The translations under genes were made by a program, and so were the position numbers. Positions 4,533 through 59,241 of a stretch of DNA of 64,000 nucleotides are shown in pieces. The notes beneath the pieces are model-generated. The model searched no databases, had not been told where the DNA came from, and saw only the letters and a program-made list of their open reading frames with translations. Each line of letters opens with the position of its first letter. Position 1 is the first letter of the stretch. The stretch comes from an uncultured bacterium (GTDB taxonomy: Bacteria > Bacteroidota > Ignavibacteria > Kapaibacteriales > UBA2268). The stretch lies in the NCBI GenBank assembly GCA_942490685.1, contig CALNXW010000016.1, positions 2,341,703 through 2,405,702 of the forward strand. Direction: 5' to 3'.

Positions 4533-4700
4533 AAAAGCAGTACTGAATTTCTCTATACAGCAGCGACATTTTATTTACTAAATGTCGCTTTTTTTGTAAC
4601 TCAATACAAATATTAACGTCTAATTTATCTTAAACAGTAAGTAATATTTTATTACTTATAAGCTTATTTATTTTGCAATATATATATATCTTTTATAACT

Positions 4701-5798: not shown

Positions 5799-5809
5799 GG
5801 AATAAAAAC

Positions 5810-6868: not shown

Positions 6869-6880
6869 AGGAAAATTTGA

Positions 6881-7927: not shown

Positions 7928-7938
7928 AGAGAATCAAA

Positions 7939-8973: not shown

Positions 8974-8985
8974 AGGAAAATTTGA

Positions 8986-21466: not shown

Positions 21467-22404
21467 TTATTTTGCTAATCTTTTCTTAAAGTCTTCAATT
21501 GTTTTTTTCAGACCTTCAAGTCGATTAACTTTTGGTTCCCATTTCAATATTTCTTTAGCTTTAGTAATATCAGGTTGTCTGACTTTCGGATCATCTGCCG
21601 GAAGATCTTCGAAAATTATCTTACTCTGCGAACCTGTAAGATCCACAATCTCTTCAGCCAGCTGAAGCATAGTAAGCTCATCAGGATTACCAATATTTGT
21701 CGGGTTCACTTCATCAGACATTAACAGACGGAAAATACCTTCTATTAGATCATCTACATAACAGACAGAACGTGTTTGTTTTCCATCTCCATAGACTGTT
21801 ACGTCCTGACCTGAGAAAGCCTGAGTGATGAAATTAGGAATAGCGCGTCCATCTTGCAGTCTCATTCGTGGGCATAAGTATTAAAGATCCTAACGATGCG
21901 AGTTTCCACTCCGTGATATCTGTTATAAGCCATAGTCATAGCTTCTGCAAATCGTTTAGCTTCATCATACACACCACGGAAACCAACCGGATTCACATTT
22001 CCCCAGTAAGTTTCAGGTTGAGGATGAATAAGTGGATCACCATAAGTTTCAGATGTAGACGCCAGTAAGAACCTAGCGTTTTTAGCTTTTGCCAGACCTA
22101 AAGTTTTGTGAGTGCCTAAAGATCCCACCTTAAGTGTTTGGATAGGCAGCTTCAAATAATCTATTGGTGATGCCGGTGAAGCAAAATGTAATATATAATC
22201 CAACTCCCCCGGTACATACACATAATTAGTAACATCATGCTGAATAAATTCAAATTTCGGATTGCCCATTAGATGAGCAATATTGTCAGGAGAACCCGTT
22301 ACAAAGTTATCCATGCAAATAACTTCATCGCCGTTTGCAATAAACTTATCACAAAGGTGTGATCCCAGGAATCCTGCTCCGCCTGTAATTAGAACTCTTG
22401 CCAT
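21467..22404 (-). pseudogene. uxs: UDP-glucuronate decarboxylase (UDP-xylose synthase, NAD-dependent SDR), interrupted by a 1-nt frameshift
   Basis: The N-terminal ORF ([19 protein letters not shown] ... RIFNTYAHE*) and the C-terminal ORF ([13 protein letters not shown]...) together cover a complete UXS-like protein. On the coding strand the junction reads TAT GCC CAC GAA TGA. Inserting one G gives TAT GGC CCA CGA ATG, i.e. the expected ...[13 protein letters not shown]. Confidence 0.75.
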
Positions 22405-22706
22405 TATTTTTATCTTTAGCTTTTTCAAAAGAAACAATCTAACATTTTTTTTGCAATTTTTTAGGCTATCTCTTCTAAATTCTATTGGAATAGAAACTTC
22501 TGAGATTTATTCACAATAATTCAAATATTTTACCCGTTTGTACGAATAATATTTAAGTCCTGTTTAATTGATAATTTATATCCATAACAGATTTGAATAC
22601 ATCCAGTCAGCTCTCCGTATTGCGTAGCTCACAAAATCCGGAAAACGATACAATATTTTTATATAAATAAACAATTGTTTGAATAAATAACGATAAGGGA
22701 TGAATT

Positions 22707-24167: not shown

Positions 24168-25103
24168 ATGAAAATTACTGTAATAGGCGGAGGACACGTA
24201 GGTGCAACTTGTGCTCAATTGATTGCAAATGATGAATTAGCTAATGAAGTAATTCTTGTGGATATTATTGATGGTGTACCACAAGGAAAATCTTTAGATA
24301 TGTATGAATCAATGCCAATTCGCGAATCAGATACAAAAATCATCGGTACTAACGAATACGATCTTACTAAAGATTCGGATATCGTTATCATCACTGCAGG
24401 TTTAGCAAGAAAACCAGGCATGACTCGCGATGATTTGTTGAAAAAAAATGCGGCAATTGTTTCATCATGTGCTGAAAATGCTTTTAAATTTTCGCCTGAC
24501 GCTTACTACATCATAGTATCTAATCCATTAGATGTGATGACTTACGTAGCATTGAAAAAACTCGGAATTGCAAGAGAAAGAGTAATTGGCATGGCAGGCA
24601 TTCTTGACACTGCTCGCTACCGTAGCTTTATCTCTATGGAATTGGGTGTTTCTATGCAGGATATTCAAGCTTTAATTTTAGGCGGTCATGGAGACACAAT
24701 GGTTCCACTACCTCGTTTTACTACTATTGCAGGTATCCCTTTGACAGATATGATGGACAAAGAAACTATCGACTCTATAGTAGCCAGAGCTGCAGGCGGT
24801 GGCGGAGAAATTGTGAAGTACCTTAAAACTGGTTCTGCATACTATGCTCCTGCTTCAGCTGCTGTTCAAATGGTAGAAGCTATCGTTAAAGATCAAAAGC
24901 GCATCTTACCTTGCTCTGTTCTATTGAAAGGTGAATACGGATATAACGATGTAGTTATCGGTGTTCCTGTTCAGCTTGGAAAAGGCGGATGTGAAAAAAT
25001 CATCGAGCTTAATTTGAATGATGATGAAAAAGCATTGCTTGATAAATCAGCTACTCACGTAGAGCAAACTATCAAAGAAGCAACTGAAATGTTAGGTCTT
25101 TAA
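24168..25103 (+). CDS. mdh: Malate dehydrogenase (LDH-like MDH family)
   Basis: 311 aa. N-terminal Rossmann MKITVIGGGHVGATCA. IVSNPLDVMTYVA matches the LDH/MDH family. Confidence 0.9.
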   Translation: MKITVIGGGHVGATCAQLIANDELANEVILVDIIDGVPQGKSLDMYESMPIRESDTKIIGTNEYDLTKDSDIVIITAGLARKPGMTRDDLLKKNAAIVSSCAENAFKFSPDAYYIIVSNPLDVMTYVALKKLGIARERVIGMAGILDTARYRSFISMELGVSMQDIQALILGGHGDTMVPLPRFTTIAGIPLTDMMDKETIDSIVARAAGGGGEIVKYLKTGSAYYAPASAAVQMVEAIVKDQKRILPCSVLLKGEYGYNDVVIGVPVQLGKGGCEKIIELNLNDDEKALLDKSATHVEQTIKEATEMLGL

Positions 25104-25137
25104 TATTACCTAGATTAAGATAAATATATACGTAAAT

Positions 25138-25170
25138 AAACCCCGCTTGGATCTAATCTGAGCGGGGTTT
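25138..25170. terminator. Bidirectional rho-independent terminator
   Basis: AAACCCCGCT-tggatctaatctg-AGCGGGGTTT, a 10-bp perfect stem between convergent mdh and T9SS-paralog copy 1. Confidence 0.7.
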
Positions 25171-25203
25171 ACTATATATATTTCATTGTCACATTTTAGA
25201 TTC

Positions 25204-26562
25204 CTATTCTACAGCGAAACCAAACATCCTTTTCTCCAATTCATTATCTACAACTAAATAATAGATACCTGTTTTCAGGCTGATTGTATTTATTCTTTTA
25301 GTTGCAAATCCGGAGTTTGGATCATATTCAATATCGTCATCAAGATTCTTTATTAGCTGCCCCATGTAGTTATATATTTTAAAATCTACACTAGCTCTAG
25401 TGCTGGGCTTTAAATAAAACTTTACATTAGTGTAAGTTTTTGCAGGGTTAGGATATACTTTTATTGGTACTATTGAGGGGAAAGCCTCAACTGAATTTCC
25501 ATTTGGAATATATTCAACCACTTTGGAATAAGTTTGCCCATTTTCTTCAAAAATTCCGGAAAGCCAAGTGCTGTTTCTTCCGGAGTTTTGGACTCTGTAC
25601 ACGACTTTGAACCCTTCATGCTCCAGATGTTCGTAGTTATAACTATCTATCCGCTTGTATTTTACGATACCTTTTTTAAGAGTATAAATTGAAACATAAA
25701 TATTACCTTCACCATCAAAAGTTGCATCAGGTTCTAACAAATATTTGCCGTCAGAAATTACTACATCAGGGTGATATTCTAATAAGCTGGTTTTAGATAA
25801 ATCTATTACTTCAAAATCGTGTGTGATCAAATTAAATATCGCTATTCTTTGTTGAGGTCCAATAAACAGTAATGTATCTCCGCTAATGCGAAGTCTTCTT
25901 GTTGCTAACCATGTCAAATTATTAGCGCCGATTATAGAATCAACATCAATCGTCCATCTTTCCTGATCGGAGTAATAATAGATCTTCTGTTCTGCATGAC
26001 CCAAGTAGAGAAATCCTTGATCATAAGGAAGAAAATTAGCCGGTCCGAGATTCCATTTATGGATGTGTACAGAATCTAAAGGTAAAGAGTCTAATTTCAA
26101 AGTTCGATCATCAAAAGTATAAATATTTCCCCAGAATCCGCTGAACCAAAACTTATGATTATTATAACCGGTTGTATTTTTAAAATCAAATTTTGAAGAT
26201 ATTTGTAATGCATTATAAACAATAGTAGTATCATCATTAAAAAAGCAAAAGTAAGAACTGTCTTTTGTACCAAAAGAAGTCATCTTGATATTTTCGCCGA
26301 AATGAGTAAACTCTGGGATAATATACTCAATCTCATATTTTTTTTCAGATGTTTCGAAAGTATCAATAATTTCCCAAGTTCTGTTTTGCTCGTCTACTAC
26401 AGCAAAATCATTTCGTCCAAAGAAATACAACTGTCCTGAAGAATCTATTAAAGCTTTCCAAAACTCAAATCCATCTCTAAACTCATAAGGTTCATCGTAA
26501 TGTTGTGAGAATATGGAAGTGTATCCTAAGAACATAAAAAACAAAAGTAGTATAGATTTCAT
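25204..26562 (-). CDS. T9SS-CTD secreted protein, family copy 1
   Basis: The real start is likely MKSILLLFFMFLGYTSIFSQ (signal peptide); the ORF track over-extends to 26640. The C-terminal ~80 aa is a Por/T9SS sorting domain (VYPNPAKTYTNVKF...TGIYYLVVDNELEKRMFGFAVE). It is >98% aa-identical to copy 2. Confidence 0.7.
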   Translation of the reverse strand: MKSILLLFFMFLGYTSIFSQHYDEPYEFRDGFEFWKALIDSSGQLYFFGRNDFAVVDEQNRTWEIIDTFETSEKKYEIEYIIPEFTHFGENIKMTSFGTKDSSYFCFFNDDTTIVYNALQISSKFDFKNTTGYNNHKFWFSGFWGNIYTFDDRTLKLDSLPLDSVHIHKWNLGPANFLPYDQGFLYLGHAEQKIYYYSDQERWTIDVDSIIGANNLTWLATRRLRISGDTLLFIGPQQRIAIFNLITHDFEVIDLSKTSLLEYHPDVVISDGKYLLEPDATFDGEGNIYVSIYTLKKGIVKYKRIDSYNYEHLEHEGFKVVYRVQNSGRNSTWLSGIFEENGQTYSKVVEYIPNGNSVEAFPSIVPIKVYPNPAKTYTNVKFYLKPSTRASVDFKIYNYMGQLIKNLDDDIEYDPNSGFATKRINTISLKTGIYYLVVDNELEKRMFGFAVE

Positions 26563-26644
26563 AATATCTTTTTTTAGTATATGAGTATAAATAATTAAAT
26601 AATAACCGAATACATTCCAAATAGTTACATATAACCCCAAAAAA

Positions 26645-26673
26645 ACACCCAGGTTGAAAAAACTGTGGGTGTT
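26645..26673 (-). terminator. Terminator hairpin repeated behind each T9SS paralog unit
   Basis: ACACCCAGG-ttgaaaaaa-CTGTGGGTGT. On the minus strand it is followed by a T-run. It recurs at ~31668-31696 and ~33167-33195 as part of the repeated unit. Confidence 0.5.
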
Positions 26674-26703
26674 TAATTAGGGAATTGTTCTCATTTTAGA
26701 TTT

Positions 26704-28062
26704 CTACTCTACAGCGAAACCAAACATCCTTTTCTCCACTTCATTATCTACAACTAAATAATAGATACCTGTTTTCAGGCTGATTGTATTTATTCTTTTA
26801 GTTGCAAATCCGGAGTTTGGATCATATTCAATATCGTCATCAAGATTCTTTATAAGCTGCCCCATGTAGTTATATATTGTAAAATCTACACTAGCTCTAG
26901 TGCTGGGCTTTAAATAAAACTTGACATTAGTGTATGTTTTTGCTGGGTTAGGAAATACTTTTATTGGTACTATTGAGGGGAAAGCCTCAACTGAATTTCC
27001 ATTTGGAATATATTCAACCACTTTGGAATAAGTTTGCCCATTTTCTTCAAAAATTCCGGAAAGCCAAGTGCTGTTTCTTCCGGAGTTTTGGACTCTGTAC
27101 ACGACTTTGAACCCTTCATGCTCCAGATGTTCGTAGTTATAACTATCTATCCGCTTGTATTTTACGATACCTTTTTTAAGAGTATAAATTGAAACATAAA
27201 TATTACCTTCACCATCAAAAGTTGCATCAGGTTCTAACAAATATTTGCCGTCAGAAATTACAACATCAGGGTGATATTCTATTAAGCTGGTTTTAGATAA
27301 ATCTATTACTTCAAAATCGTGTGTGATCAAATTAAATATCGCTATTCTTTGTTGAGGTCCAATAAACAGTAATGTATCTCCGCTAATGCGAAGTCTTCTT
27401 GTTGCTAACCATGTCAAATTATTAGCGTCGATGATAGAATCAACATCAATCGTCCATCTTTCCTGATCGGAGTAATAGTATATCTTCTGTTCTGCATGAC
27501 CCAAGTAGAGAAATCCTTGATCATAAGGAAGAAAATTAGCCGGTCCGAGATTCCATTTATGGATGTGTACAGAATCTAAAGGTAAAGAGTCTAATTTCAA
27601 AGTTCGATCATCAAAAGTATAAATATTTCCCCAGAATCCGCTGAACCAAAACTTATGATTATTATAACCGGTTGTATTTTTAAAATCAAATTTTGAAGAT
27701 ATTTGTAATGCATTATAAACAATAGTAGTATCATCATTAAAAAAGCAAAAGTAAGAACTGTCTTTTGTACCAAAAGAAGTCATCTTGATATTTTCGCCGA
27801 AATGAGTAAACTCTGGGATAATATACTCAATCTCATATTTTTTTTCAGATGTTTCGAAAGTATCAATAATTTCCCAAGTTCTGTTTTGCTCGTCTACTAC
27901 AGCAAAATCATTTCGTCCAAAGAAATACAACTGTCCTGAAGAATCTATTAAAGCTTTCCAAAACTCAAATCCATCTCTAAACTCATAAGGTTCATCGTAA
28001 TGTTGTGAGAATATGGAAGTGTATCCTAAGAACATAAAAAACAAAAGTAGTATAGATTTCAT
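26704..28062 (-). CDS. T9SS-CTD secreted protein, family copy 2
   Basis: Differs from copy 1 at about five residues. The ORF-track extension to 28110 runs into the IS30 end. Confidence 0.7.
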   Translation of the reverse strand: MKSILLLFFMFLGYTSIFSQHYDEPYEFRDGFEFWKALIDSSGQLYFFGRNDFAVVDEQNRTWEIIDTFETSEKKYEIEYIIPEFTHFGENIKMTSFGTKDSSYFCFFNDDTTIVYNALQISSKFDFKNTTGYNNHKFWFSGFWGNIYTFDDRTLKLDSLPLDSVHIHKWNLGPANFLPYDQGFLYLGHAEQKIYYYSDQERWTIDVDSIIDANNLTWLATRRLRISGDTLLFIGPQQRIAIFNLITHDFEVIDLSKTSLIEYHPDVVISDGKYLLEPDATFDGEGNIYVSIYTLKKGIVKYKRIDSYNYEHLEHEGFKVVYRVQNSGRNSTWLSGIFEENGQTYSKVVEYIPNGNSVEAFPSIVPIKVFPNPAKTYTNVKFYLKPSTRASVDFTIYNYMGQLIKNLDDDIEYDPNSGFATKRINTISLKTGIYYLVVDNEVEKRMFGFAVE

Positions 28063-28083
28063 AATATCTTTTTTTAGTATATG

Positions 28084-29222
28084 GCCACATTCAACCAATA
28101 AATGCAACAAAGTTTAAAATAATAAATTTTTCTTTCTTGTAATAGGATTATCGAAATCAAGTCTCTTTCTTGGTCTGTTATTAAGTATGTTCTGCACGAA
28201 GCTCACAAATTTATCTTCCAGTAAAGTAAAGTCCGTTTTCTTAGGTATATATTGTCTTATAAGCCCGTTTAGATTCTCATTTGCACCTCTCTGCCACGGC
28301 TTATACGGATGAGCAAAGTAGAAATCAACTCCTAATATTTCTGCAATTAAAGAGTGATAAGCGAACTCTTTTCCATTATCTGCTGTAATAGTATGAATAT
28401 TGTCTCTTTCGTCGTAAAGTAGCTCTATAGTAGCATTTACGATATCTTCGGCACTTCTGCTTTTTGTTTTTTTCATCCACAGCATCCCGGAAGCCCGGTC
28501 GTTTATAGTTACTATTGCCCCCTTATGATTCTTGCCTATAATTGTGTCTATTTCTAAATCTCCAAATCGTTTTCTTTCCTCCACTATAGTCGGTCTTTCG
28601 TCAATATCACGTCGATTTACTATTGTCCCCCGACTTTTGTATTGGCTGCCACGTTTTTGATACCTCCTGCCTTTACGGCGAAGATGCAAGTGCAAATCCT
28701 GACCGTTTGCTTTGCATTTCCAAATATGCTGATATATACTTTCGTGAGAAACGCAAGGGATATCGTTCTTTCGGCAGAATCCAACTATTTGCTCAGGACT
28801 GTAATCCAGCTCCAGATAATACCTAATTGTCGCTTTTACAGAATCTGTCATATACGTACGCTTGTGTTTCCATTTCTGCCGAGTTTCGTAGTACTTTTGT
28901 GCATTTTTGCTGCTATAAATACCTGTACGCTCGTTAGTATTACGTTTTATTTCCCTGATGACAACTGATTTGTCTTTGCCAATCGTCTCAGCTATGTAAG
29001 TAATTGATTTTCCTTTTGCTAACAAGCATTCTATTGTATATCTTTGTTCTCTGGTGATATGTGCCATTGCAACCCTCTTGTTTGGACGCTGGAAGGAAAA
29101 AATGCGCATATTTTCCATCAAAACACGGAAGGCAGATTTTTTCTGCTTTCCTGTTTTGAAAAATTTATGCTTTTCTTCTATAACGTCTCATCTAAGTGTT
29201 GCATTTATTACTTGAATTTAGA
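28084..29222 (-). mobile_element. IS30-family insertion sequence (~1.14 kb)
   Basis: Single transposase ORF. Imperfect terminal inverted repeats: ATTCAACCAATAAATGCAAC on the left, ATTCAAGTAATAAATGCAAC on the right (reverse complement). A candidate 3-bp target-site duplication ATG sits at 28081-28083 and 29223-29225. The uninterrupted target sequence is visible in the copy-1 leader (tatATGagtataaat). Boundaries are accurate to about 5 bp. Confidence 0.7.
28114..29121 (-). CDS. IS30-family DDE transposase
   Basis: N-terminal HTH (MAHITREQRYTIECLLAKGKSITYIAETIG) followed by an rve/DDE catalytic domain (LEIDTIIGKNHKGAIVTINDRASG...). Confidence 0.85.
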   Translation of the reverse strand: MMENMRIFSFQRPNKRVAMAHITREQRYTIECLLAKGKSITYIAETIGKDKSVVIREIKRNTNERTGIYSSKNAQKYYETRQKWKHKRTYMTDSVKATIRYYLELDYSPEQIVGFCRKNDIPCVSHESIYQHIWKCKANGQDLHLHLRRKGRRYQKRGSQYKSRGTIVNRRDIDERPTIVEERKRFGDLEIDTIIGKNHKGAIVTINDRASGMLWMKKTKSRSAEDIVNATIELLYDERDNIHTITADNGKEFAYHSLIAEILGVDFYFAHPYKPWQRGANENLNGLIRQYIPKKTDFTLLEDKFVSFVQNILNNRPRKRLDFDNPITRKKNLLF

Positions 29223-29316
29223 ATGAGTATAAATAATTAAATAATAACCGAATACTGTTCTTTCCCTCTGAAAATTGACCCGTTTTTGTCAGCAAAATTG
29301 ACCCACCCCAATATAA

Positions 29317-30069
29317 TTATTTATTTATAATATCCTTCACTCTAAAACTTTTTCCATTGATAAAAAACGGATAGCAGTGATGCAAAAGTCTGTCTAAAAT
29401 GGCAGATGCGACCACGTCATCCTGGAATATATCACCCCATTTGTCAAAGGACTTGTTCGATGTAATAATCGTAGATTTTCGTTCGTATCTTGCAGCAATC
29501 AGCCTGAAGAAAAATGATGCAGTTTTCTTTGTAAGCTCAAGATAGCCGAGTTCGTCGATTATAAGCAGATCAAGCCGGTCTAATGTGTTTAGCAGTCTTT
29601 GCAGTTGACCAATCATTTCTGCTTCGGCAAAAGCTTTCATTAGCTGCTCTGTTGTGTAAAATGCAACTCTTTTTCTCTGCTGACAGGCTTTAATCCCAAT
29701 GGATATGGCAAGATGCGTTTTGCCAACACCCGGAGGTTCGAGAAAGATAATATTTTTTGCCTCATCCATAAATTGCAGTTGCGTGAGTTCTCTCAAAAGC
29801 TTTTCGTCAATCTTTGGTTGAAAAGAAAAATCAAAGCTCTCAAAATGCTTTATTTGAGGGAATCCGGCTGTTTGTACTCTTCTGTTGATAGAGCGGTCAA
29901 GCTTCGAGATTACTTCTTCCTGCATGATTTTAAAGAGAAATTCTGCATAACTAAGCTTGGCTTTAGCTGCATTTTCCACCTCTAACTTATAATTCTGTCT
30001 AATCCAAGGCAGAGTCAGCGTTTTAAGATATTCATCTAATTTGTCGTGGGTCTGCATTTTAACCTCCAA
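29317..30069 (-). CDS. istB: IS21-family helper ATPase IstB
   Basis: Walker A PPGVGKTHLAISIG, a DnaA/DnaC-like AAA+ fold. It overlaps the istA stop. Confidence 0.9.
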   Translation of the reverse strand: MEVKMQTHDKLDEYLKTLTLPWIRQNYKLEVENAAKAKLSYAEFLFKIMQEEVISKLDRSINRRVQTAGFPQIKHFESFDFSFQPKIDEKLLRELTQLQFMDEAKNIIFLEPPGVGKTHLAISIGIKACQQRKRVAFYTTEQLMKAFAEAEMIGQLQRLLNTLDRLDLLIIDELGYLELTKKTASFFFRLIAARYERKSTIITSNKSFDKWGDIFQDDVVASAILDRLLHHCYPFFINGKSFRVKDIINK

Positions 30070-31528
30070 AATGATTGTTGTAATAATCCAGATTTCGCAC
30101 GATATTGACTTCTTCTATTGTTTTGTTTATCATGGTTTCTATGCGTACAGGCTCTACTGGAGCATCTTTAGCATTATTCTCTACATAAGCTCTTACAAAC
30201 TTTGAGTTAAAGATGTTATAATCACGGCATTTAAGAAAAGCTGCTTCCATATCTTTATGCTCAAAATACATAGCTGTATCCATGATTCTTGTAAGGTGAT
30301 ATGCAGGATTTATTCTCTTTTGTGCATATAGTTTGTCCAAAAACCAGGCAAAATCAGGGAATTTCTTGCTAAAACTCATAGACAAACGTTTCCAACTTCC
30401 TTTTTCTATGCTGTGATTCTTATAGTGAGAGTCCAGCATGATAATTTTACCTTTCTCTAAACTGAGCTTGTGACGGGCTATGAGCTTGCTTTTTGTTGAA
30501 TATACTTCGATATAGCTGCCTTTAGAGACTTTGACCCAAACCTGCTTGCCAACAAATAAATATGGCACGCTGTATCGGCTTCCCATAAATGAAATCAGGC
30601 AGTCTGCACTTACTTTGCGAACTTCTTCTTTGACGCTTACATAGCGTGATTCCGGCAGAATTGATAAGTATTCTTTCTCTTTTGCAAAAAGCTCGATAGG
30701 TTTTGCTTTTGTTGTCGAATGCACTCTGGAATTGACTTTATCCTGAAAATCCTTTAGTTTTTGGCAGAAATCTTCGAAGGATTCATATTCATTGCCTTTG
30801 ATAAAATGATCTTCGAGGTATGCAAAAGGGCGTTCTACCTTGCCTTTTGACCAAGGATGTGCAGGTAGAGAGCGAGTTGGCTTAAAGCCGTAATGTCCGC
30901 AAAATGCCAAATATCGCTTATTCCATTGGAAGTTATCCTTTGAGGCATTTGTTACAAAGCTTGTTGCGTTGTCTGTTTGAATTTGCTCACAAACGCCACC
31001 GGATTCGATGATGGAATTTTCCAACGCTTCCAATATACTCGCCATAGTATCACTGAGAGCCGCTTCCAACACACGATGCCGACTGAAACCATGGATATAC
31101 TGATATACATATAATTTGACTAACTTACCGCCAATCATTACTGTATAAGGACTCCAGTCATATTGTGCCTGAAAGCCGGGAGACGTTTCGTAAGGCTTGA
31201 ATGATGGCTTTTCTTGCGCTGACATCTTCTCACAATACCTGTAAAAAGCACTTTGAGAGCCGGTATAGCCTTTTGCTCGAATATCAGCTAATACTCTGCT
31301 TTTACGAAGTCTTTTCTTATTTAAACTCTCAGAAATGTATTCCTCAAACGGCATCAGAAAAGGATTTGCACTGCACTCGCGCGTATATTGTGGAGCAGAA
31401 TCCTTCTTTAGAGCTGATTTAACCGTATTGCGACTAACATTAAGCAGCTTAGCAATCTTGCGTGTACCCAAATCAGGGTTATGATTTTTCAAATTTCGGA
31501 TAGTTACCCAATCTTCCACTGTTATCAC
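30059..31528 (-). CDS. istA: IS21-family transposase IstA
   Basis: 489 aa. N-terminal HTH plus a DDE integrase core, with the typical istA-istB overlap. Confidence 0.9.
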   Translation of the reverse strand: MITVEDWVTIRNLKNHNPDLGTRKIAKLLNVSRNTVKSALKKDSAPQYTRECSANPFLMPFEEYISESLNKKRLRKSRVLADIRAKGYTGSQSAFYRYCEKMSAQEKPSFKPYETSPGFQAQYDWSPYTVMIGGKLVKLYVYQYIHGFSRHRVLEAALSDTMASILEALENSIIESGGVCEQIQTDNATSFVTNASKDNFQWNKRYLAFCGHYGFKPTRSLPAHPWSKGKVERPFAYLEDHFIKGNEYESFEDFCQKLKDFQDKVNSRVHSTTKAKPIELFAKEKEYLSILPESRYVSVKEEVRKVSADCLISFMGSRYSVPYLFVGKQVWVKVSKGSYIEVYSTKSKLIARHKLSLEKGKIIMLDSHYKNHSIEKGSWKRLSMSFSKKFPDFAWFLDKLYAQKRINPAYHLTRIMDTAMYFEHKDMEAAFLKCRDYNIFNSKFVRAYVENNAKDAPVEPVRIETMINKTIEEVNIVRNLDYYNNHFGG

Positions 31529-31730
31529 CTATTTCCCTCCTGCATTTGAAGTCAATCTTATGCAGGATTAGTTAGCAAATGGTGGGTCAATTTTCAGCGG
31601 GAAAAGTGGGTCAATTTTCGGAGGGAATTGAGAAATACATTCCAAATAGTTACATATAACACCCAAAAAAAACACCCAGGTTGAAAAAACTGTGGGTGTT
31701 TAATTAGGGAATTGTTCTCAATTTAGATTC

Positions 31731-33089
31731 CTATTCTACAGCGAAACCAAACATCCTTTTCTCCAATTCATTATCTACAACTAAATAATAGATACCTGTT
31801 TTAAGGCTGATTGTATTTATTCTTTTAGTTGCAAATCCGGAGTTTGGATCATATTCAATATCGTCATCAAGATTCTTTATTAGCTGCCCCATGTAGTTAT
31901 ATATTTTAAAATCTACACTAGCTCTAGTGCTGGGCTTTAAATAAAACTTGACATTAGTGTATGTTTTTGCTGGGTTAGGATATACTTTTATTGGTACTAT
32001 TGAGGGGAAAGCCTCAACTGAGTTTCCATTTGGAATATATTCAACCACTTTGGAATAAGTTTTTCCGTTTTCTTCAAAAATGCCAGAAAGCCAAGTGCTG
32101 TTTCTTCCGGAGTTTTGGACTCTATACACAACTTTGAACCCTTCATGCTCCAGATGTTCGTAGTTATAACTATCTATCCGCTTGTATTTTACGATACCTT
32201 TTTTGAGAGTAAAAATTGAAACATAAATATTACCTTCACCATCAAAAGTTGCATCAGGTTCTAACAAATATTTGCCGTCAGAAATTACTACATCAGGGTG
32301 ATATTCTAATAAGCTGGTTTTAGATAAATCTATTACTTCAAAATCGTGTGTGATCAAATTAAATATCGCTATTCTTTGTTGAGGTCCAATAAACAGTAAT
32401 GTATCTCCGCTAATGCGAAGTCTTCTTGTTGCTAACCATGTCAAATTATTAGTGTCGATTATAGAATCAACATCAATCGTCCATCTTTCCTGATCGGAGT
32501 AATAATAGATCTTCTGTTCTGCATGACCCAAGTAGAGAAATCCTTGATCATAAGGAAGAAAATTAGCCGGTCCGAGATTCCATTTATGGATGTGTACAGA
32601 ATCTAAAGGTAAAGAGTCTAATTTGAAAGTTCGATCATCAAAAGTATAAATATTTCCCCAGAATCCGCTGAACCAAAACTTGTGATTATTATAACCGGTT
32701 GTATTTTTATATTTGAATTTCGATGACAATTGATATTTATTTATCACAATAGTAGTATCATCATTAAAAAAGCAAAAGTAAGAACTGTCTTTTGTACCAA
32801 AAGAAGTCATCTTGATATTTTCGCCGAAATGAGTAAACTCTGGGATAATATACTCAATCTCATGTTTTTTTTCAGATGTTTCAAAAGTATCAATAATTTC
32901 CCATGTTCTGTTTTGCTCGTCTACTACAGCAAAATCATTTCGTCCAAAGAAATACAACTGTCCTGAAGAATCTATTAAAGCTTTCCAAAACTCAAATCCA
33001 TCTCTAAACTCATAAGGTTCATCGTAATGTTGTGAGAATATGGAAGTGTATCCTAAGAACATAAAAAACAAAAGTAGTATAGATTTCAT
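31731..33089 (-). CDS. T9SS-CTD secreted protein, family copy 3
   Basis: Near-identical to copies 1 and 2, with a variable patch (TTIVINKYQLSSKFKYKNTTG versus TTIVYNALQISSKFDFKNTTG). The ORF-track start at 33176 is over-extended. Confidence 0.7.
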   Translation of the reverse strand: MKSILLLFFMFLGYTSIFSQHYDEPYEFRDGFEFWKALIDSSGQLYFFGRNDFAVVDEQNRTWEIIDTFETSEKKHEIEYIIPEFTHFGENIKMTSFGTKDSSYFCFFNDDTTIVINKYQLSSKFKYKNTTGYNNHKFWFSGFWGNIYTFDDRTFKLDSLPLDSVHIHKWNLGPANFLPYDQGFLYLGHAEQKIYYYSDQERWTIDVDSIIDTNNLTWLATRRLRISGDTLLFIGPQQRIAIFNLITHDFEVIDLSKTSLLEYHPDVVISDGKYLLEPDATFDGEGNIYVSIFTLKKGIVKYKRIDSYNYEHLEHEGFKVVYRVQNSGRNSTWLSGIFEENGKTYSKVVEYIPNGNSVEAFPSIVPIKVYPNPAKTYTNVKFYLKPSTRASVDFKIYNYMGQLIKNLDDDIEYDPNSGFATKRINTISLKTGIYYLVVDNELEKRMFGFAVE

Positions 33090-33231
33090 AATATCTTTTT
33101 TAATATATGAGTATAAATAATTAAATAATAACCGGACACATTCCAAATAGTTACATATAACACCCAAAAAAAACACCCAGGTTGAAAAAACTGTGGGTGT
33201 TTAATTAGGGAATTGTTCTCAATTTAGATTT

Positions 33232-34629
33232 CTACTCTACAGCGAAACCAAACATTTTTGACTCAACGCCATTATTGATATGTAGATAATAAATTCCTGT
33301 GCGATACTTTGATGACTGTATTGTTTTGGTTGCATAAAATCTGCTGTTGTCATATTCCACTTCTTTATCCAATTTGTCCACCTGATTGCCCATATAGTCA
33401 TAAATCGTAAATTCAAGATCATCTATCAAATCAGGGCGAATGTAAAACTGCACTTTAGTTTGAGTTTTTGTCGGATTTGGATATGTGCGCAAAGTTATCA
33501 TTGACGGAACCGATTCTACTGAATTACCTTCAGGGAAGTAAGGAATTGCAACCCAGTTTGTATCAGAGTTCGGATTTTTATAAGGGCCGTATAACCAAAC
33601 ATAGTCAAAAGGTGTAGAAATAACTGATCTAGACTCGAATAAAAGCTCTGATTTTAGTTCTTTGCATATCCTGTCTTTATCCACCCTGAAAACAGCCGGT
33701 GCACTTTTCCCAAAAGAATAGTATGATAAATATATATCATGATTACTACCTATATGAATATATCCTGGAATCTTTTTATCTTTTGCCAAATCTTCTTCAA
33801 GATGTTTTCCTACTATTCCTTTTGTAAGGTCTATAAACTCTGTTTCATATGTCTTCAAATCAAATATTACCACATGCACCCTTGTGTCTAAAATATAAAG
33901 CTTATCATCTCTCAATTCTACATTATACAAATCGCTGTATTTCGGAGACGCTACTTTAAAAATTGAATCTGCATTGATAGTATAGCTTGTATCTTTGGAA
34001 AAGAAATGTAATTCCTTCCTGTTCTGAGTAAAATACAGCAATCCATTTTGGTATGAATTAATTGCTGAACCAAAAGTATGATATGTCTTAACTATTGTTC
34101 CGTCTATTGGAATAGAATCAATTTCAAGAGTATTCTCATCAAAGCTTAGTAAAAATTTGATATTCCCAAAAAACCAATATTTGCCATCTGAATACTCAGC
34201 ATCAATTATATATTTGTAATGTGGATGCAATTCCCCCTCTCTATATAACCAGGACAAAGTAGTATCCTGATTTTTAAACAGCAAATATGGTTTAAGACTA
34301 TCCTGTCCGTAATATCCAATTATCTTTGGTGCAACAATTGCCATATGAGATTTATTACTATAACCAATTGGATTGTATAAATACGACTCGCAAGTTGTAT
34401 CTTTTAAAGCAAAATGAGTATGTCTTACTAAAGTGTCAGACAAATCCTTATAGCTATGTAGTGGAGTGTGACCGGCGATGTAGCATATATTAGAAGAATC
34501 CATGTAAAATCTTTCGAAAGGATTTCTCTTGAGTTTAGTAAAATATGGCTTACCATAATAATCACTTAGCAAAATAGAAGGAAAACTTATCGTAAATAAA
34601 ATAAAGAGTATTATTGTTCTCATCTGCAC
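33232..34629 (-). CDS. T9SS-CTD secreted protein, diverged family copy 4
   Basis: Same architecture and a homologous C-terminal sorting domain (TYPNPTKTQTKVQFYI...TGIYYLHINNGVESKMFGFAVE), but a diverged body. Confidence 0.65.
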   Translation of the reverse strand: MQMRTIILFILFTISFPSILLSDYYGKPYFTKLKRNPFERFYMDSSNICYIAGHTPLHSYKDLSDTLVRHTHFALKDTTCESYLYNPIGYSNKSHMAIVAPKIIGYYGQDSLKPYLLFKNQDTTLSWLYREGELHPHYKYIIDAEYSDGKYWFFGNIKFLLSFDENTLEIDSIPIDGTIVKTYHTFGSAINSYQNGLLYFTQNRKELHFFSKDTSYTINADSIFKVASPKYSDLYNVELRDDKLYILDTRVHVVIFDLKTYETEFIDLTKGIVGKHLEEDLAKDKKIPGYIHIGSNHDIYLSYYSFGKSAPAVFRVDKDRICKELKSELLFESRSVISTPFDYVWLYGPYKNPNSDTNWVAIPYFPEGNSVESVPSMITLRTYPNPTKTQTKVQFYIRPDLIDDLEFTIYDYMGNQVDKLDKEVEYDNSRFYATKTIQSSKYRTGIYYLHINNGVESKMFGFAVE

Positions 34630-34692: not shown

Positions 34693-34900
34693 TTATTCGC
34701 AAATAACATTACATTCAACTTCTACAGGCACAGGAGGGATTAAATCCATAGAATTTACTATAACTGTTCTAGGACAACCTCCTTCAATTCCTTTAGTAAC
34801 CCCCTGATACTCGGTAGCTAGCTGCATATGTCCAAATTCGTTCGGTTTGTAACATAGTTTATATTCATATTCACAAATACCAGTTTTTTCAGTACATTGG
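34693..34900 (-). pseudogene. C-terminal fragment of a Cys-rich secreted protein gene split by IS21 copy B
   Basis: Reading the minus strand in frame across the IS gives ...KVSQ|CTEKTGICEYEYKLCYKPNEFGHMQLATEYQGVTKGIEGGCPRTVIVNSMDLIPPVPVEVECNVICE*. The frame continues exactly from ORF 37257..37724 once the IS and one copy of the ATTGG duplication are removed. Confidence 0.7.
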
Positions 34901-35005
34901 TCTCAATTCCCTCCGAAAATTGACCCACTTTTCCCGCTGAAAATTGACCCACCATTTGCTAACTAATCCTGCATAAGATTGACTTCAAATGCAGGAGGGA
35001 AATAG

Positions 35006-36476
35006 GTGATAACAGTGGAAGATTGGGTAACTATCCGAAATTTGAAAAATCATAACCCTGATTTGGGTACACGCAAGATTGCTAAGCTGCTTAATGTTAG
35101 TCGCAATACGGTTAAATCAGCTCTAAAGAAGGATTCTGCTCCACAATATACGCGCGAGTGCAGTGCAAATCCTTTTCTGATGCCGTTTGAGGAATACATT
35201 TCTGAGAGTTTAAATAAGAAAAGACTTCGTAAAAGCAGAGTATTAGCTGATATTCGAGCAAAAGGCTATACCGGCTCTCAAAGTGCTTTTTACAGGTATT
35301 GTGAGAAGATGTCAGCGCAAGAAAAGCCATCATTCAAGCCTTACGAAACGTCTCCCGGCTTTCAGGCACAATATGACTGGAGTCCTTATACAGTAATGAT
35401 TGGCGGTAAGTTAGTCAAATTATATGTATATCAGTATATCCATGGTTTCAGTCGGCATCGTGTGTTGGAAGCGGCTCTCAGTGATACTATGGCGAGTATA
35501 TTGGAAGCGTTGGAAAATTCCATCATCGAATCCGGTGGCGTTTGTGAGCAAATTCAAACAGACAACGCAACAAGCTTTGTAACAAATGCCTCAAAGGATA
35601 ACTTCCAATGGAATAAGCGTTATCTGGCATTTTGCGGACATTACGGCTTTAAGCCAACTCGCTCTCTATTCTGCACATCCTTGGTCAAAAGGCAAGGTAG
35701 AACGCCCTTTTGCATACCTCGAAGATCATTTTATCAAAGGCAATGAATATGAATCCTTCGAAGATTTCTGCCAAAAACTAAAGGATTTTCAGGATAAAGT
35801 CAATTCCAGAGTGCATTCGACAACAAAAGCAAAACCTATCGAGCTTTTTGCAAAAGAGAAAGAATACCTGTCAATTCTTCCGGAATCACGCTATGTAAGC
35901 GTCAAAGAGGAAGTTCGCAAAGTAAGTGCAGACTGCCTGATTTCATTCATGGGATGCCGCTACAGCGTGCCATATTTGTTTGTTGGCAAGCAGGTTTGGG
36001 TCAAGGTCTCTAAAGGCAGCTATATCGAAGTATATTCAACAAAAAGCAAGCTCATAGCCCGTCACAAGCTCAGTTTAGAGAAAGGTAAAATTATCATGCT
36101 GGACTCTCACTATAAGAATCACAGCATAGAAAAAGGAAGTTGGAAACGTCTGGCTATGAGTTTTAGCAAGAAATTCCCTGATTTTGCCTGGTTTTTGGAC
36201 AAACTATATGCACAAAAGAGAATAAATCCTGCATATCACCTTACAAGAATCATGGATACAGCTATGTATTTTGAGCATAAAGATATGGAAGCAGCTTTTC
36301 TTAAATGCCGTGATTATAACATCTTTAACTCAAAGTTTGTAAGAGCTTATGTAGAGAATAATGCTAAAGATGCTCCGGTAGAGCCTGTACGCATAGAAAC
36401 CATGATAAACAAACCAATAGAAGAAGTCAATATCGTGCGAAATCTGGATTATTACAACAATCATTTTGGAGGCTAA
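35006..36476 (+). pseudogene. istA: IstA transposase, copy B, disrupted by a +1 frameshift
   Basis: The two ORFs 35006..35746 and 35586..36476 together equal copy A IstA. Copy A reads ctctacctgcaca where copy B reads ctctattctgcaca (one extra base), breaking the frame at ...GFKPTRSL|PAHPWSKG. Confidence 0.8.
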
Positions 36477-37218
36477 AATGCAGGCATACGACAAATTAGA
36501 TGAATATCTCAAAACGCTGACTCTGCCTTGGATTAGACAGAATTATAAGTTAGAGGTGGAAAATGCAGCTAAAGCCAAGCTTAGTTATGCAGAATTTCTC
36601 TTTAAAATCATGCAGGAAGAAGTAATCTCGAAGCTTGACCGCTCTATCAACAGAAGAGTACAAACAGCCGGATTCCCTCAAATAAAGCATTTTGAGAGCT
36701 TTGATTTTTCTTTTCAACCAAAGATTGACGAAAAGCTTTTGAGAGAACTCACGCAACTGCAATTTATGGATGAGGCAAAAAATATTATCTTTCTCAATCC
36801 TCCGGGTGTTGGCAAAACGCATCTTGCCATATCCATTGGGATTAAAGCCTGTCAGCAGAGAAAAAGAGTTGCATTTTACACAACAGAGCAGCTAATGAAA
36901 GCTTTTGCCGAAGCAGAAATGATTGGTCAACTGCAAAGACTGCTAAACACATTAGACCGGCTTGATCTGCTTATAATCGACGAACTCGGCTATCTTGAGC
37001 TTACAAAGAAAACTGCATCATTTTTCTTCAGGCTGATTGCTGCAAGATACGAACGAAAATCTACGATTATTACATCGAACAAGTCCTTTGATAAATGGGG
37101 TGATATATTCCAGGATGACGTGGTCGCATCTGCCATTTTAGACAGACTTTTGCATCACTGCTATCCGTTTTTTATCAATGGAAAAAGTTTTAGAGTGAAG
37201 GATATTATAAATAAATAA
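36466..37218 (+). CDS. istB: IS21-family helper ATPase IstB (copy B)
   Basis: 250 aa, with about three substitutions relative to copy A. Confidence 0.9.
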   Translation: MEAKMQAYDKLDEYLKTLTLPWIRQNYKLEVENAAKAKLSYAEFLFKIMQEEVISKLDRSINRRVQTAGFPQIKHFESFDFSFQPKIDEKLLRELTQLQFMDEAKNIIFLNPPGVGKTHLAISIGIKACQQRKRVAFYTTEQLMKAFAEAEMIGQLQRLLNTLDRLDLLIIDELGYLELTKKTASFFFRLIAARYERKSTIITSNKSFDKWGDIFQDDVVASAILDRLLHHCYPFFINGKSFRVKDIINK

Positions 37219-37279
37219 TTATATTGGGGTGGGTCAATTTTGCTGACAAAAACGGGTCAATTTTCAGAGGGAAAGAACA

Positions 37280-37724
37280 ATTGGCTTACTTTATAAGTAA
37301 GTCTTGGACCTCCTGTATGATTATCAATATATCTATATGGATCTGTCCAACAGCTTGAGCTTGTAACAACAACTATATTATCATCTCCCATATACGGCTC
37401 ATCACACGGATATAGATCCATTCCAGGAAAAGACTCCAATATAGGAGCAACTAATCTTGCAACTTCTGACATTATTATATCATAATCATGCAAAAATACT
37501 TCTTTTGCGAAGTTTAAATCACACTCAAGAGAGTTTGTTGCAAAGTACCAGTTTTTAATGTAAATATATGGTAGAGATAGTGGAGTTCCTTCTCCTCTAT
37601 CAACCCAACAGTATTCTATCCAAAGTTCACAGCAATCTGTTAAATCTCTTATTTTCATAAAGCCACCATAATTTGGATAGCCTGCCGGACAATCCTGTGC
37701 ATCAGAATTACTTGAAAAAAACAC
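37280..37724 (-). pseudogene. N-terminal part of the Cys-rich secreted protein gene split by IS21 copy B
   Basis: The ORF-track protein (155 aa, many Cys: DCPAGY, CCELWIEYCW, CDEPYMGDD, SSCW) ends with 7 aa (LFFPSEN) encoded by the IS terminus. The upstream frame has a signal-peptide-like VVALLFLVFFSSNSDA, but the only ATG upstream (MKYYFKPSL) is in another frame. So the start is GTG, or there is an additional frameshift. Confidence 0.6.
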
Positions 37725-38122
37725 TAAAAATAATAGTGCTACAACGAAGGTTTGAAATAATATTTCATAATTTATACCTCTAAGTATAATGTAACAAATC
37801 TATTCAATACTTTATTGAATAGTAGCAATCGGGCTAAGCAAGCTGCCACTTGCTTAGCCTAGTTTTTTACAATTAACATATTTTGACTATGTTAATTATC
37901 AACGTCAGTTAACTGAACCGATTTAAATATACAGATTGATTTTATTATTTCCAAGATATTATTTCTTTTTTCTTGCTATTTTTTTTTTTGATTTCATTAT
38001 TTATCTATATCATACCTACCAATTTCACATGTTTTTTATACTCATTGAATATTATATATTTAAATTTGCATATCTCACAAAACTGTTTTATATCATATAT
38101 ATTAATATGACAATTCGAGAAT

Positions 38123-58710: not shown

Positions 58711-59241
58711 TTGAAGAAACTATATTACTTCTATTCTCCAATTGTTTTTGATATTATTAATATGGAACTAAATAATAAGATTTGGCATGTAACTTGGGTT
58801 ACTCGTAATAGTCGTATCAGTGAAAGAATGATACTGGCGCGAGTAAAGCTTGAGAATCCAGTCACACTGACTGATGAAATGCGTAATATTGTTGCAGAAA
58901 GTATCAAATTAAAGATTAAAGAAGAATCAATAAAGATTTATGCTCTTAATGTTCTAATGGATCATGTTCATATTATAATTCAATCGTCTGAAACTGAACT
59001 TGAAGAAATTGTGCGTAAGTTAAAAGGCTATTCCTCTTATCAAATATCCAAAACTTTGGGTTACACATCAAAAGGTCAAGGCAAACAAACTAAAATCTGG
59101 GCTACCAGCTTCAGCAAAACTTTAATCAGAGATAAAAAGCATCTTTTAGAATCAATCAACTACATTAAAAATAACCACCTAAAACATAATGTTACTCCAT
59201 GTAAAGCACTCTTGTTTTTCTCACAGAGTCCAATAAAGTAA
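58711..59241 (+). CDS. HUH-family Y1 transposase (IS200/IS605 TnpA-like; REP-associated tyrosine transposase candidate)
   Basis: HuH motif HVHIIIQ. Conserved KGYSSYQIS and a C-terminal catalytic Tyr context (SINYIKNNH). The real start is probably M18 (MELNNKIWHVTW), giving ~159 aa. Confidence 0.75.
   Translation: MKKLYYFYSPIVFDIINMELNNKIWHVTWVTRNSRISERMILARVKLENPVTLTDEMRNIVAESIKLKIKEESIKIYALNVLMDHVHIIIQSSETELEEIVRKLKGYSSYQISKTLGYTSKGQGKQTKIWATSFSKTLIRDKKHLLESINYIKNNHLKHNVTPCKALLFFSQSPIK

Follow-up and report, generated by a model that had tools for sequence, protein, structure and literature searches.

Tandem genes for secreted beta-propeller proteins, recombination and insertion sequences at a locus of Candidatus Kapaibacterium

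PorZ takes part in the attachment complex of the T9SS and occurs in single copy. In Porphyromonas gingivalis this protein (PG1604, PDB 5M11) carries two propellers in about 750-780 residues, whereas the proteins encoded in the stretch of DNA analysed here (64,000 nucleotides, hereafter the window) have one propeller in 452-465 aa, match PorZ with 11% identity and, unlike PorZ, are variable tandem paralogues restricted to Kapabacteria. A propeller homologous at the sequence-profile level is also found in the hybrid two-component sensors of Bacteroides (BT3049, PDB 3v9f; BT4663, 4a2l/4a2m; BT4673, 3ott), but these are not T9SS cargo. They combine two propellers with kinase and regulator domains and a transmembrane segment, and the ligands known for them are glycans. 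The insertion sequences of the locus belong to the IS30 and IS21 families by their canonical transposase genes, their terminal repeats and their target duplications of 3 and 5 bp, and, like elements of these families that disrupt or replace promoters, they separate a gene from the signals upstream of it. The IS21 element ends in ...GAGA instead of the usual ...CA, and no hybrid promoter was evident at the insertions. Upstream of the genes is a TGTAAC(T) box as in ECF promoters with a (T/C)GTAAC -35 element (ECF16 consensus quoted in PMC8315932), TGTAAC being a documented form of that element. Here a short GT(C/T) box follows it after 16-17 nt and the distance to the genes is conserved, but this second box reads GTC or GTT where those promoters have CGAA. 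We describe the anatomy and boundaries of the elements at this locus, and the fold, distribution and recombination history of a lineage-restricted family of secreted proteins.

The original prediction, made from the nucleotide sequence, of three near-identical tandem units and a diverged fourth was borne out by the coordinates and by four genes on the same (minus) strand, which adjoin mdh and citrate synthase on the chromosome of a Candidatus Kapaibacterium (Kapabacteria) genome. Three are A-type genes encoding 452 aa each with a conserved start (ATG/MKSILLL): c1 (25204-26562; open reading frame with translation and AlphaFold2 model), c2 (26704-28062), whose reading frame is intact, and c3 (31731-33089), the most diverged among them. 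The fourth, c4 (33232-34629), is a B-type paralogue with about 28% protein identity to c1-c3 and encodes 465 aa counted from a GTG start, although its true start is likely the ATG at 34623. All four proteins share a Sec signal peptide, one propeller passenger and a T9SS type-A C-terminal domain. This last domain had been predicted correctly, with both profiles scoring above their cutoffs (PF18962 with 37.4 bits, cutoff 27; TIGR04183 with 28.6 bits, cutoff 23); in c1 the Por_Secre_tail match covers residues 369-442.

The passenger had been thought to have no recognisable fold. The AlphaFold2 model contradicts this, showing with confidence (pLDDT 86; 78.9 with 7 aligned sequences and 86.3 with 34) a seven-bladed beta-propeller followed by a C-terminal beta-sandwich. 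The family profile matched the Reg_prop sensor domain of BT3049 with E = 2.7e-16, and best Foldseek matches were PorZ (E = 4e-11) and the BT4663 and BT4673 sensors. The Pfam Reg_prop domain (PF07494) was matched by 6 of 34 family members, and none of the window's own proteins reached its score. The passenger is a seven-bladed Reg_prop-like beta-propeller, nearest to PorZ and the Bacteroides hybrid sensors. In a protein database search of 5.8 billion entries the family formed five clusters, 17 representatives among 1.84 billion proteins fell below 1e-30, and all genomes that could be located were Kapabacteria or Chlorobiota MAGs.

Every gene of the array comes complete with a leader and an intrinsic terminator of its own and thus forms a self-contained unit, repeated with a start-to-start period of 1500-1502 bp. 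As expected from the predicted leader of about 80 nt and terminator hairpin, the spacers of 141-143 nt consist of a hairpin with a U7-8 terminator and a 78-nt leader. The intact minus-strand spacer between c2 and c1 (26563-26703) contains the terminator hairpin at about 26643-26674 with its U-run, the 78-nt leader and a motif TGTAACT-N16-GTTATT (26601-26629). In the intact spacer between c4 and c3 (33090-33231, minus strand) the hairpin is located at about 33171-33202 and the motif at 33127-33155. Only the distal part of the c3-to-c2 spacer (31634-31730, minus strand) is joined to c3, with the c3 hairpin at about 31670-31701 and an orphaned TGTAACT half-site at 31648-31654. The 1.5-kb repeat begins within the last ~25 nt of c4, in a 3' coding end conserved between A and B genes (ATGTTTGGTTTCGCTGTAGA, then the stop codon), and similarity to the other spacers ends about 15 nt past the c1 stop codon. 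Downstream of c1 there is a strong hairpin (25122-25183, minus strand; fold energy -28 kcal/mol, z = -5.1) which differs from the terminators between the copies, is common to c1 and the convergent mdh, and lies where the repeat array ends distally.

An identity above 98% had been claimed for all of c1-c3. At the DNA level it holds for c1 and c2 only (99.0%, 14 differences), while c1/c3 and c2/c3 reach 97.3% (37 differences) and 96.8% (43 differences), respectively. The differences are indeed clustered, with 16 of the 37 between c1 and c3 falling in codons 115-127 (binomial tail 2e-15), a hyper-divergent tract of 39 nt in c3. Shared states form a mosaic, c1 agreeing with c2 at 33 sites, c1 with c3 at 10 and c2 with c3 at 4. 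Because synonymous changes cluster in the variable tract as well as non-synonymous ones, its sequence points to an imported conversion tract, for which a donor is absent from the window.

Copy number differs among Kapabacteria assemblies. Next to three A and one B gene in the window, the syntenic locus of assembly L002 has one A and two B genes plus the remnant of a third B-type copy, L001 has two A genes, L004 one A gene and L005 three copies. Over the first ~700 nt the lone gene of L004 agrees with copy a of L001, and the 140 nt upstream are also closer to copy a (13 versus 30 differences), whereas from about nt 1000 and into the downstream flank it matches copy b (1 versus 39 differences); by its sequence it is clearly a crossover chimera. 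Because copy numbers vary in four other assemblies and one gene is such a chimera, unequal recombination both enlarges and reduces these arrays. The lineage-specific copy numbers support the notion of an expanding family, but loss of copies through unequal crossover is just as clear.

Of two old subfamilies A (452 aa) and B (465 aa), the A gene has been brought to three copies here through unequal homologous recombination, the repeat starting in the ~25 nt of 3' coding sequence shared by A and B and reaching ~15 nt beyond the stop codon of c1. The copies then diverged by 1-3% in the mosaic pattern typical of gene conversion. Concerted evolution, in which continuing gene conversion keeps the copies of an old, not recently expanded array almost alike, might also account for the mosaic, for spacers homogenised up to c4 and for paralogues grouping by their own genome in every case. 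We regard this as rather improbable, since the nearest relative has one A-type copy at the syntenic locus and has duplicated the B type instead, a single clean junction of the repeat falls at the shared 3' microhomology, and two close MAGs whose copies are 98% identical differ in copy number, one of them carrying the chimera. Gene conversion and expansion by unequal recombination are not mutually exclusive.

After array formation, three independent simple transpositions (IS21-A, IS30 and IS21-B) followed. The IS30-family element (28084-29222, minus strand, 1139 bp; NF033563 with 290 bits, cutoff 80), of which the window holds one copy only, encodes a transposase at 28114-29121 (minus strand) and has 21-bp inverted repeats (28089-28109 and 29197-29217) and a 3-bp ATG target duplication (28081-28083 and 29223-29225). 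It is inserted 21 bp upstream of the c2 ATG, and these 21 bp (28063-28083) are the only native upstream DNA still attached to c2. IS21-A (29256-31633, minus strand, 2378 bp) has reiterated terminal repeats, intact istA (30059-31528, minus strand) and istB (29317-30069, minus strand) genes (NF033546 with 223.7 bits, cutoff 160; NF038214 with 272.8, cutoff 200) and a 5-bp AATAC duplication (29251-29255 and 31634-31638), and, in leader coordinates, interrupts the sequence 51 bp before the c2 ATG. Profiles, positions and excision all agree with the families, duplications and distances (about 20 and 50 bp) originally proposed: when the two elements were removed in silico, each with one of its duplication copies, the resulting spacer equalled the uninterrupted spacers within 1-2 nt. 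The insertions had been described as nested, but they are adjacent, with 33 bp of c2 leader between them (29223-29255, minus strand; 100% identical to 26581-26613) that carry the start of the predicted 5' UTR and, of the motif, the GTTATT half.

The window contains another IS21 copy, in inverted orientation, that the original prediction had missed. This IS21-B (34901-37279, plus strand) is 98.9% identical to IS21-A, and its istA is frameshifted (G to AA opposite 30864/30865 of IS21-A). With its own 5-bp ATTGG duplication (34896-34900 and 37280-37284) it entered a small neighbouring gene for a Cys-rich secreted protein, now split into a 3' fragment (34693-34900) and a 5' fragment (37280-37770), both on the minus strand. 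Removal of IS21-B and one duplication copy gave an ORF colinear with a 227-aa orthologue (L002, 5955-6638), against which a 2-nt (TA) insertion after codon 2 of the 5' fragment was read by eye. An epimerase gene at about 21865 has another frameshift.

IS21-A and IS21-B bracket c3 and c4, and inverted, nearly identical copies around a 3267-bp segment could be read as a composite transposon that imported or mobilised these two genes. We consider this highly implausible: each IS21 has its own matched duplication while the outer flanks are unlike, each insertion breaks recognisable native sequence, istA of IS21-B is frameshifted, and the locus is syntenic with that of L002, which is without insertion sequences. 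Assemblers are also known to stumble over near-identical repeats, here of 1.5 kb, and over insertion sequences present in several copies, and the frameshifts in the epimerase and Cys-rich genes might be read errors. A mis-join or an artificially expanded single gene is nevertheless very improbable, as every copy has private SNPs in a consistent mosaic, each insertion has a perfect target duplication and its excision gives back native sequence, three distinct products stand in the database from one 3.28-Mb contig, and analogous arrays occur in four other assemblies.

The intact leaders carry the bipartite motif TGTAACT-N16-GTY, which is conserved across five lineages. Its only matches in the window were in the two intact leaders (0.03 expected). 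In L001, L002, L004 and L005 it precedes family genes by 68-101 nt, and in L008 it precedes a distant member of the family, its second half being GTC in most other lineages and GTT in this genome. The motif also occurs upstream of an unrelated lipoprotein operon at 4595. A generic sigma-70 scan was uninformative, with 51 sites in this AT-rich DNA versus 42 expected, so an insertion sequence may conceivably have an outward promoter. Of the ten window ORFs scanned, none encodes an ECF sigma factor, which counts against the promoter reading, as does the GTT. From its conservation and resemblance we infer that the motif is a candidate ECF-like promoter. The view that the insertions occupy the promoter region agrees with this, as IS21-A splits the 16-nt spacer of the motif and IS30 lies about 20 nt downstream of the second half.

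With the motif split by IS21-A and the predicted 5' UTR interrupted by IS30, c2 is probably silenced, or would at best be weakly read through from the co-oriented IS30 transposase gene; silencing and read-through, as originally proposed, are a fair pair of alternatives. It is possible, if less likely, that the elements drive c2 by an outward promoter or by istAB or IS30 read-through, turning ECF-like control into constitutive expression. All three insertion-sequence genes share one strand with c2, and the IS30 transposase stop (28114) is about 52 nt from the c2 ATG, with no terminator-like site found between them. Against this, inspection and scan gave no convincing outward -35/-10 pair at the IS30 end, a hairpin followed by a T-rich tract is present in the IS30 5' region (29127-29151), and transposase promoters are typically weak. 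The intact frame of c2 and the absence of excess non-synonymous change would be consistent with expression: its specific substitutions (CDS positions 582, 585, 630, 781, 801, 1109, 1184, 1209, 1324 and 1356) affect 4 codons non-synonymously and 6 synonymously and give no sign of relaxed constraint, and therefore either the insertions are recent or c2 is still in use.

Overall, we give a probability of roughly three in four to a locus of recombination-amplified genes for secreted propellers, subjected to three insertion-sequence transpositions, in which c2 is most likely silenced or weakly read through. In three independent lineages, recent paralogues vary at residues 113-131 and 212-217. The 39-nt tract of c3 corresponds to the loop that follows strand D in blade 2; recent paralogues of other Kapabacteria vary in this loop too, as well as in its counterpart after blade 4, and from strand topology the two loops would be on one face of the propeller. 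This suggests diversification of a binding surface, and a surface or ligand-binding role with selection on the loops may be inferred, although the clustered synonymous changes in the tract speak against such selection. The locus itself represents well-documented but ordinary genome turnover.

The four minus-strand genes c1 to c4, each encoding a putative signal peptide, a propeller passenger and a type-A C-terminal domain of the type IX secretion system (T9SS), form an array between mdh (24168-25103, plus strand), which is convergent with c1, and a second, inverted IS21 copy (IS21-B). Genes c1 (25204-26562), c2 (26704-28062) and c3 (31731-33089) each encode 452 aa from an ATG conserved among homologues (MKSILLL), and c4 (33232-34629) encodes 465 aa from a GTG, with the likely true ATG at 34623. 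No further paralogues were found in the window by tblastn. DNA identity was 99.0% for c1/c2, 97.3% for c1/c3 and 96.8% for c2/c3, so the value of more than 98% originally given for copies 1-3 holds only for the first of these pairs; c4 showed about 28% protein identity to c1-c3. The start-to-start period was 1500, 1501 and 1502 bp (the last after subtracting the insertion sequences), and RNA folding resolved each spacer of 141-143 nt into a hairpin AAACACCCA...UGGGUGUUU, a run of U7-8 and a 78-nt leader. Folding was used to detect these inter-copy terminators because a consensus terminator scan missed them, their loops exceeding the limit of the scanner. The hairpin 3' of c1 differed from the inter-copy ones, being stronger and common to the convergent mdh. 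Homology between the units starts in the last ~25 nt of c4 (ATGTTTGGTTTCGCTGTAGAgtag), a stretch common to c4 (B-type subfamily) and the A-type genes c1-c3, and ends ~15 nt past the c1 stop codon.

Assembly collapse or mis-join would be another explanation for the c1-c3 repeats. Against it, private SNPs are present in each copy, the target duplications of the insertion sequences are perfect and their in-silico excision gives back native sequence, three different products of a single 3.28-Mb contig are on public record, and analogous arrays exist in four other assemblies. Overall, the original prediction of a tandem array with insertions in the c2 leader was borne out, with two small corrections concerning the identity range and the word "nested", which should read "adjacent".

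All four proteins had a signal-peptide-like N-terminus and exceeded the curated cutoffs for the T9SS type-A sorting domain (c1: PF18962 37.4 bits, cutoff 27, and TIGR04183 28.6, cutoff 23; c4: 31.8 and 23.8 bits, respectively), and PF18962 matched 34/34 aligned family members. The N-terminus MKSILLLFFMFLGYTSIFSQ follows the charged, hydrophobic, small-residue pattern of Sec signal peptides at a position conserved across homologues, and the structural model places a helix at residues 2-14. For the passenger, previously described as lacking a recognisable fold, AlphaFold2 predicted an all-beta structure in which residues ~20-355 form seven blades of four strands each and residues 364-451 a beta-sandwich, with a pLDDT of 78.9 from 7 sequences and 86.3 from the 34-sequence alignment. 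In Foldseek, the best matches were PorZ (5m11, E = 4e-11) and two Bacteroides sensors, BT4663 and BT4673, through their Reg_prop domains. By sequence alone the family profile matched BT3049 (3v9f_A, E = 2.7e-16), and PF07494 (Reg_prop) was matched directly by 6/34 family members, with no match in c1 and c4 at E <= 0.1. Based on the model, the Foldseek ranking, the 3v9f profile match and the direct PF07494 matches, the passenger is considered Reg_prop-like in both its sequence profile and its fold. PorZ itself is a protein of about 750-780 aa in which two propellers in tandem are joined to a C-terminal domain, whereas the window proteins have one propeller (452 aa in c1); as identity in the structural alignment was also only 11%, they are not considered PorZ orthologues. 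A binding role at the cell surface seems plausible for the family. T9SS cargo genes are dense in this region, since the domain is also carried by a plus-strand gene at 1466-2644, whose unrelated passenger has BNR/Ycf48-like propeller matches, and by a minus-strand gene at 40283-41686 encoding a 467-aa protein with a likewise unrelated passenger that has no Pfam match. The alignment of the latter protein to the family was limited to the C-terminal domain.

Upstream of c2, an element of 1139 bp (28084-29222), ending 21 bp before the c2 ATG, showed all characters of the IS30 family (a single DDE transposase, terminal inverted repeats, a 2-3 bp duplication and a length of ~1-1.7 kb). Its 21-bp inverted repeats are 90% matched, the duplication is a 3-bp ATG, and the transposase is intact, covering the full NF033563 profile with 290.3 bits (cutoff 80). 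The second element, IS21-A (29256-31633, 2378 bp), likewise showed the characters of the IS21 family, namely overlapping istA/istB, reiterated terminal repeats and a 4-8 bp target duplication. Its istA and istB are intact and overlap by 11 nt (IstA: NF033546 223.7 bits, cutoff 160; IstB: NF038214 272.8 bits, cutoff 200), repeats of the type GGGTCAATTTTC are reiterated at both IS21 ends, and the 5-bp duplication, AATAC here, is present at both IS21 copies. The two elements are separated by 33 bp of c2 leader (29223-29255) and lie side by side, not one within the other. Their boundaries are fixed by in-silico excision, minus one duplication each, which rebuilds the native spacer and matches the uninterrupted spacers within 1-2 nt. 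A hairpin with a 10-bp stem and T-rich flanks on both strands was observed at 29127-29151, within the untranslated 5' region of IS30 and directly upstream of the transposase start. This hairpin may shield the transposase gene from transcription that enters the element from outside, and if so, read-through from IS21-A towards c2 would be limited as well.

The earlier description of the insertion sequences was largely correct, with the omission of IS21-B (34901-37279). This copy is inverted relative to IS21-A and 98.9% identical to it (24 mismatches, one indel), has its own ATTGG duplication, and carries an istA frameshifted by a G-to-AA change. When it is excised, an ORF is restored that is colinear over its whole length with a Cys-rich secreted-protein gene of 227 aa occupying the corresponding position in a related genome. 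Because each element has its own matched duplications and excision restores the native sequence, the three insertions are independent simple transpositions. The inverted IS21 pair flanks c3 and c4, an arrangement also compatible in outline with a composite transposon; the outer flanks are however AATAC and ATTGG, each IS having its own matched pair, and the same matched duplications rule out an inversion between the two copies. The c3-c4 segment was therefore neither imported as a composite transposon nor is it now inverted. A third IS family is represented in the window by an IS200-like Y1 transposase ORF of 176 aa (58711-59241, plus strand), and a Y1 transposase was also seen close to the array in the related-genome locus L001.

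Two further genes of the window appear as split reading frames. Fragments of the Cys-rich secreted-protein gene lie at 34693-34900 and 37280-37770 (minus strand), split by IS21-B, the orthologue being the 227-aa ORF at 5955-6638 of the related-genome locus L002. Reading by eye further showed a 2-nt TA insertion after codon 2 of the window copy (ATGAAA-TA-TTATTTCAAACC). Unless TA is a read error, this gene would be a pseudogene with two lesions. At 21467-22437 (minus strand) a gene for a NAD-dependent epimerase/dehydratase is split into ORFs of 191 aa and 132 aa, apparently by a 1-nt deletion in TATG(G)CCCACGAATG, and its orthologue in L002 is one intact gene of 312 aa. The split reflects either a genuine pseudogene or an indel introduced by the assembly, and bears on the trust that can be placed in single-base frameshifts of this assembly.

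Between species the spacers have diverged beyond alignment, and one bipartite motif, TGTAACT-N16-GT(C/T), is kept. Among the T9SS-gene leaders of the window it was present only in the two intact ones (26601-26629 and 33127-33155), and 2 matches were found in the window where 0.03 were expected. In the related-genome loci L001, L004, L002 and L005 the motif precedes family genes by 68-101 nt, and in L008, another such locus, it precedes a distant family member by 70 nt. It was found upstream of family genes in five lineages. The motif pairs a conserved GTAAC-type -35 box with a short -10 box 16-17 nt away, as expected of ECF promoters. As TGTAAC is documented as a -35 box of ECF sigma factors (PMC8315932), we interpret the motif as a candidate ECF-type promoter. 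No sigma-70 r2/r4 match indicative of an ECF sigma gene was found among ten window ORFs scanned. A sigma-70 consensus scan gave promoter-like sites that were not enriched over shuffles (51 found, 42 expected), and the Bacteroidetes-type -7 box TAnnTTTG was absent from every leader examined. The motif was also observed as TGTAACT-N16-GTCTAA at 4595-4623, directly after a hairpin and T-run terminator and 106 nt upstream of a five-gene operon starting at 4701. The region (4560-10020, plus strand) encodes five back-to-back paralogous lipoproteins of 365/352/348/344/344 aa that are 26-64% identical, with LGVYGC-type lipoboxes and 11-13-nt spacers. The lipoproteins are unrelated to the propeller family, and the common bipartite motif suggests that the operon and the T9SS-gene array might share a regulon.

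In c2 this putative promoter is disrupted. IS21-A inserted inside the 16-nt spacer of the motif, leaving TGTAACT at 31648-31654 and GTTATT in the 33-bp island, and IS30 inserted into the predicted c2 5' UTR, ~20 nt further downstream than GTTATT, in agreement with the original placement of both insertions in the promoter region. By inspection, no replacement -35 box was created at the IS21 end. We consider it probable, at about 60%, that c2 is silenced or strongly down-regulated, judging from its leader. The main rival is that c2 expression is now driven by the insertion sequences. Weak read-through from the co-oriented IS30 transposase is possible, as only ~52 nt without a terminator-like site separate its stop codon from the c2 ATG; no convincing outward promoter was seen at the IS30 end, and we regard IS-driven expression as rather doubtful compared with silencing. 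Gene c2 still has an open reading frame over its full length, and its private changes, which affect 4 codons non-synonymously and 6 synonymously, show no relaxation; the insertions in its leader are probably recent.

The family is very small, with five clusters at 90% identity in a set of 5.8 billion proteins and 17 representatives below 1e-30 among 1.84 billion, and all located genomes encoding it are Kapabacteria or Chlorobiota MAGs. A scan of JGI metagenomes for other strains found no relatives, and exact-sequence look-up of P0001 found no contig. One paper, a hot-spring CAZyme survey (PMC8857248), contains both "Kapabacteria" and "type IX secretion". The window array, which adjoins mdh and citrate synthase, has one B-type and three A-type genes, and the syntenic L002/L003 has two B-type genes (98% identical) and one A-type gene. 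In a Mur ligase/SNF context, L001 has two A-type genes (90% identical, 1500 bp apart) and L004 one, while L005 has three copies (64-94% identical) in a different context. Paralogues grouped by genome in every case.

Comparison of two closely related MAGs, with two copies in L001 (8501-11359) versus one in L004 (10001-11359), was informative on copy loss. Over its first ~700 nt the L004 gene corresponds to L001 copy a (the upstream 140 nt showing 13 differences to a and 30 to b), and from nt ~1000 onwards, including the downstream flank, to copy b (1 versus 39 differences). Such a 5'-a/3'-b chimera has the signature of unequal crossover between tandem copies. Nucleotides 701-800 of the same gene differ from both L001 parents (15 and 17 differences) and represent another variable patch. 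At 9687-10000 of L002, a third B-type leader with the first ~105 nt of a B-type coding sequence is fused upstream of the A-type gene; it carries the TGTAACT motif at 9790, is ~95% identical to the intact copy, and is what is left of a B-type copy lost by deletion within the array. The chimera, the remnant and the repeat junction at the c4 3' end, common to both gene types, support gain and loss of copies by unequal homologous recombination. The "expanding family" first proposed is therefore right about copy gain and only half the story, because arrays also contract.

Differences between the copies were not evenly distributed. Between c1 and c3, 16/37 differences were concentrated in codons 115-127, a stretch of 39 nt (binomial tail 2e-15), with synonymous changes and codons altered at several nucleotides among them. 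Such a pattern resembles a conversion tract brought in from elsewhere rather than point mutation in place. A donor was absent from the window, where tblastn detected no other paralogue, and c4 is too divergent to have served as one. A diversity-generating retroelement was rejected as the source because the substitutions are not adenine-specific and some are synonymous or multi-nucleotide. Informative sites form a mosaic, with c1 = c2 at 33, c1 = c3 at 10 and c2 = c3 at 4. Residues 113-131 and 212-217 differ between recent paralogue pairs in three independent lineages. In the model each segment follows the fourth strand of a blade (113-117 and 202-206) and opens with a short helix, and hence they are equivalent inter-blade connections; by topology only, both loops may lie on one face. 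It is conceivable, though we think it improbable, that the paralogue arrays serve to vary a surface-exposed binding protein, whereby loops ~113-131/212-217 would be re-patterned by short conversion tracts among tandem and dispersed copies, the family would be under one ECF-type stress promoter, and promoterless copies such as c2 would act as silent donor cassettes. If true, this would resemble antigenic-variation cassettes, but in T9SS cargo of free-living Kapabacteria, and phage or predator recognition might drive it.

All components of the locus are of known kinds: its secreted proteins are T9SS cargo bearing a propeller of Reg_prop-like type, its mobile elements belong to the IS30 and IS21 families, its array varies by unequal crossover, and insertion sequences interrupt a candidate promoter. 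None of its mechanisms is new. The original interpretation holds largely for the insertion sequences and the promoter region, fails for the passenger fold, and was incomplete regarding the second IS21 and array contraction. A Reg_prop/PorZ-like propeller fold and a candidate regulatory motif can now be given to a family that was unannotated. The locus represents a clean, fully resolved case of lineage-specific turnover of a secreted-protein family in an uncultured phylum-level lineage, showing copy gain and loss by unequal crossover, short apparent conversion tracts at recurrent, presumably surface-exposed loops and two different insertion sequences disrupting a candidate promoter.
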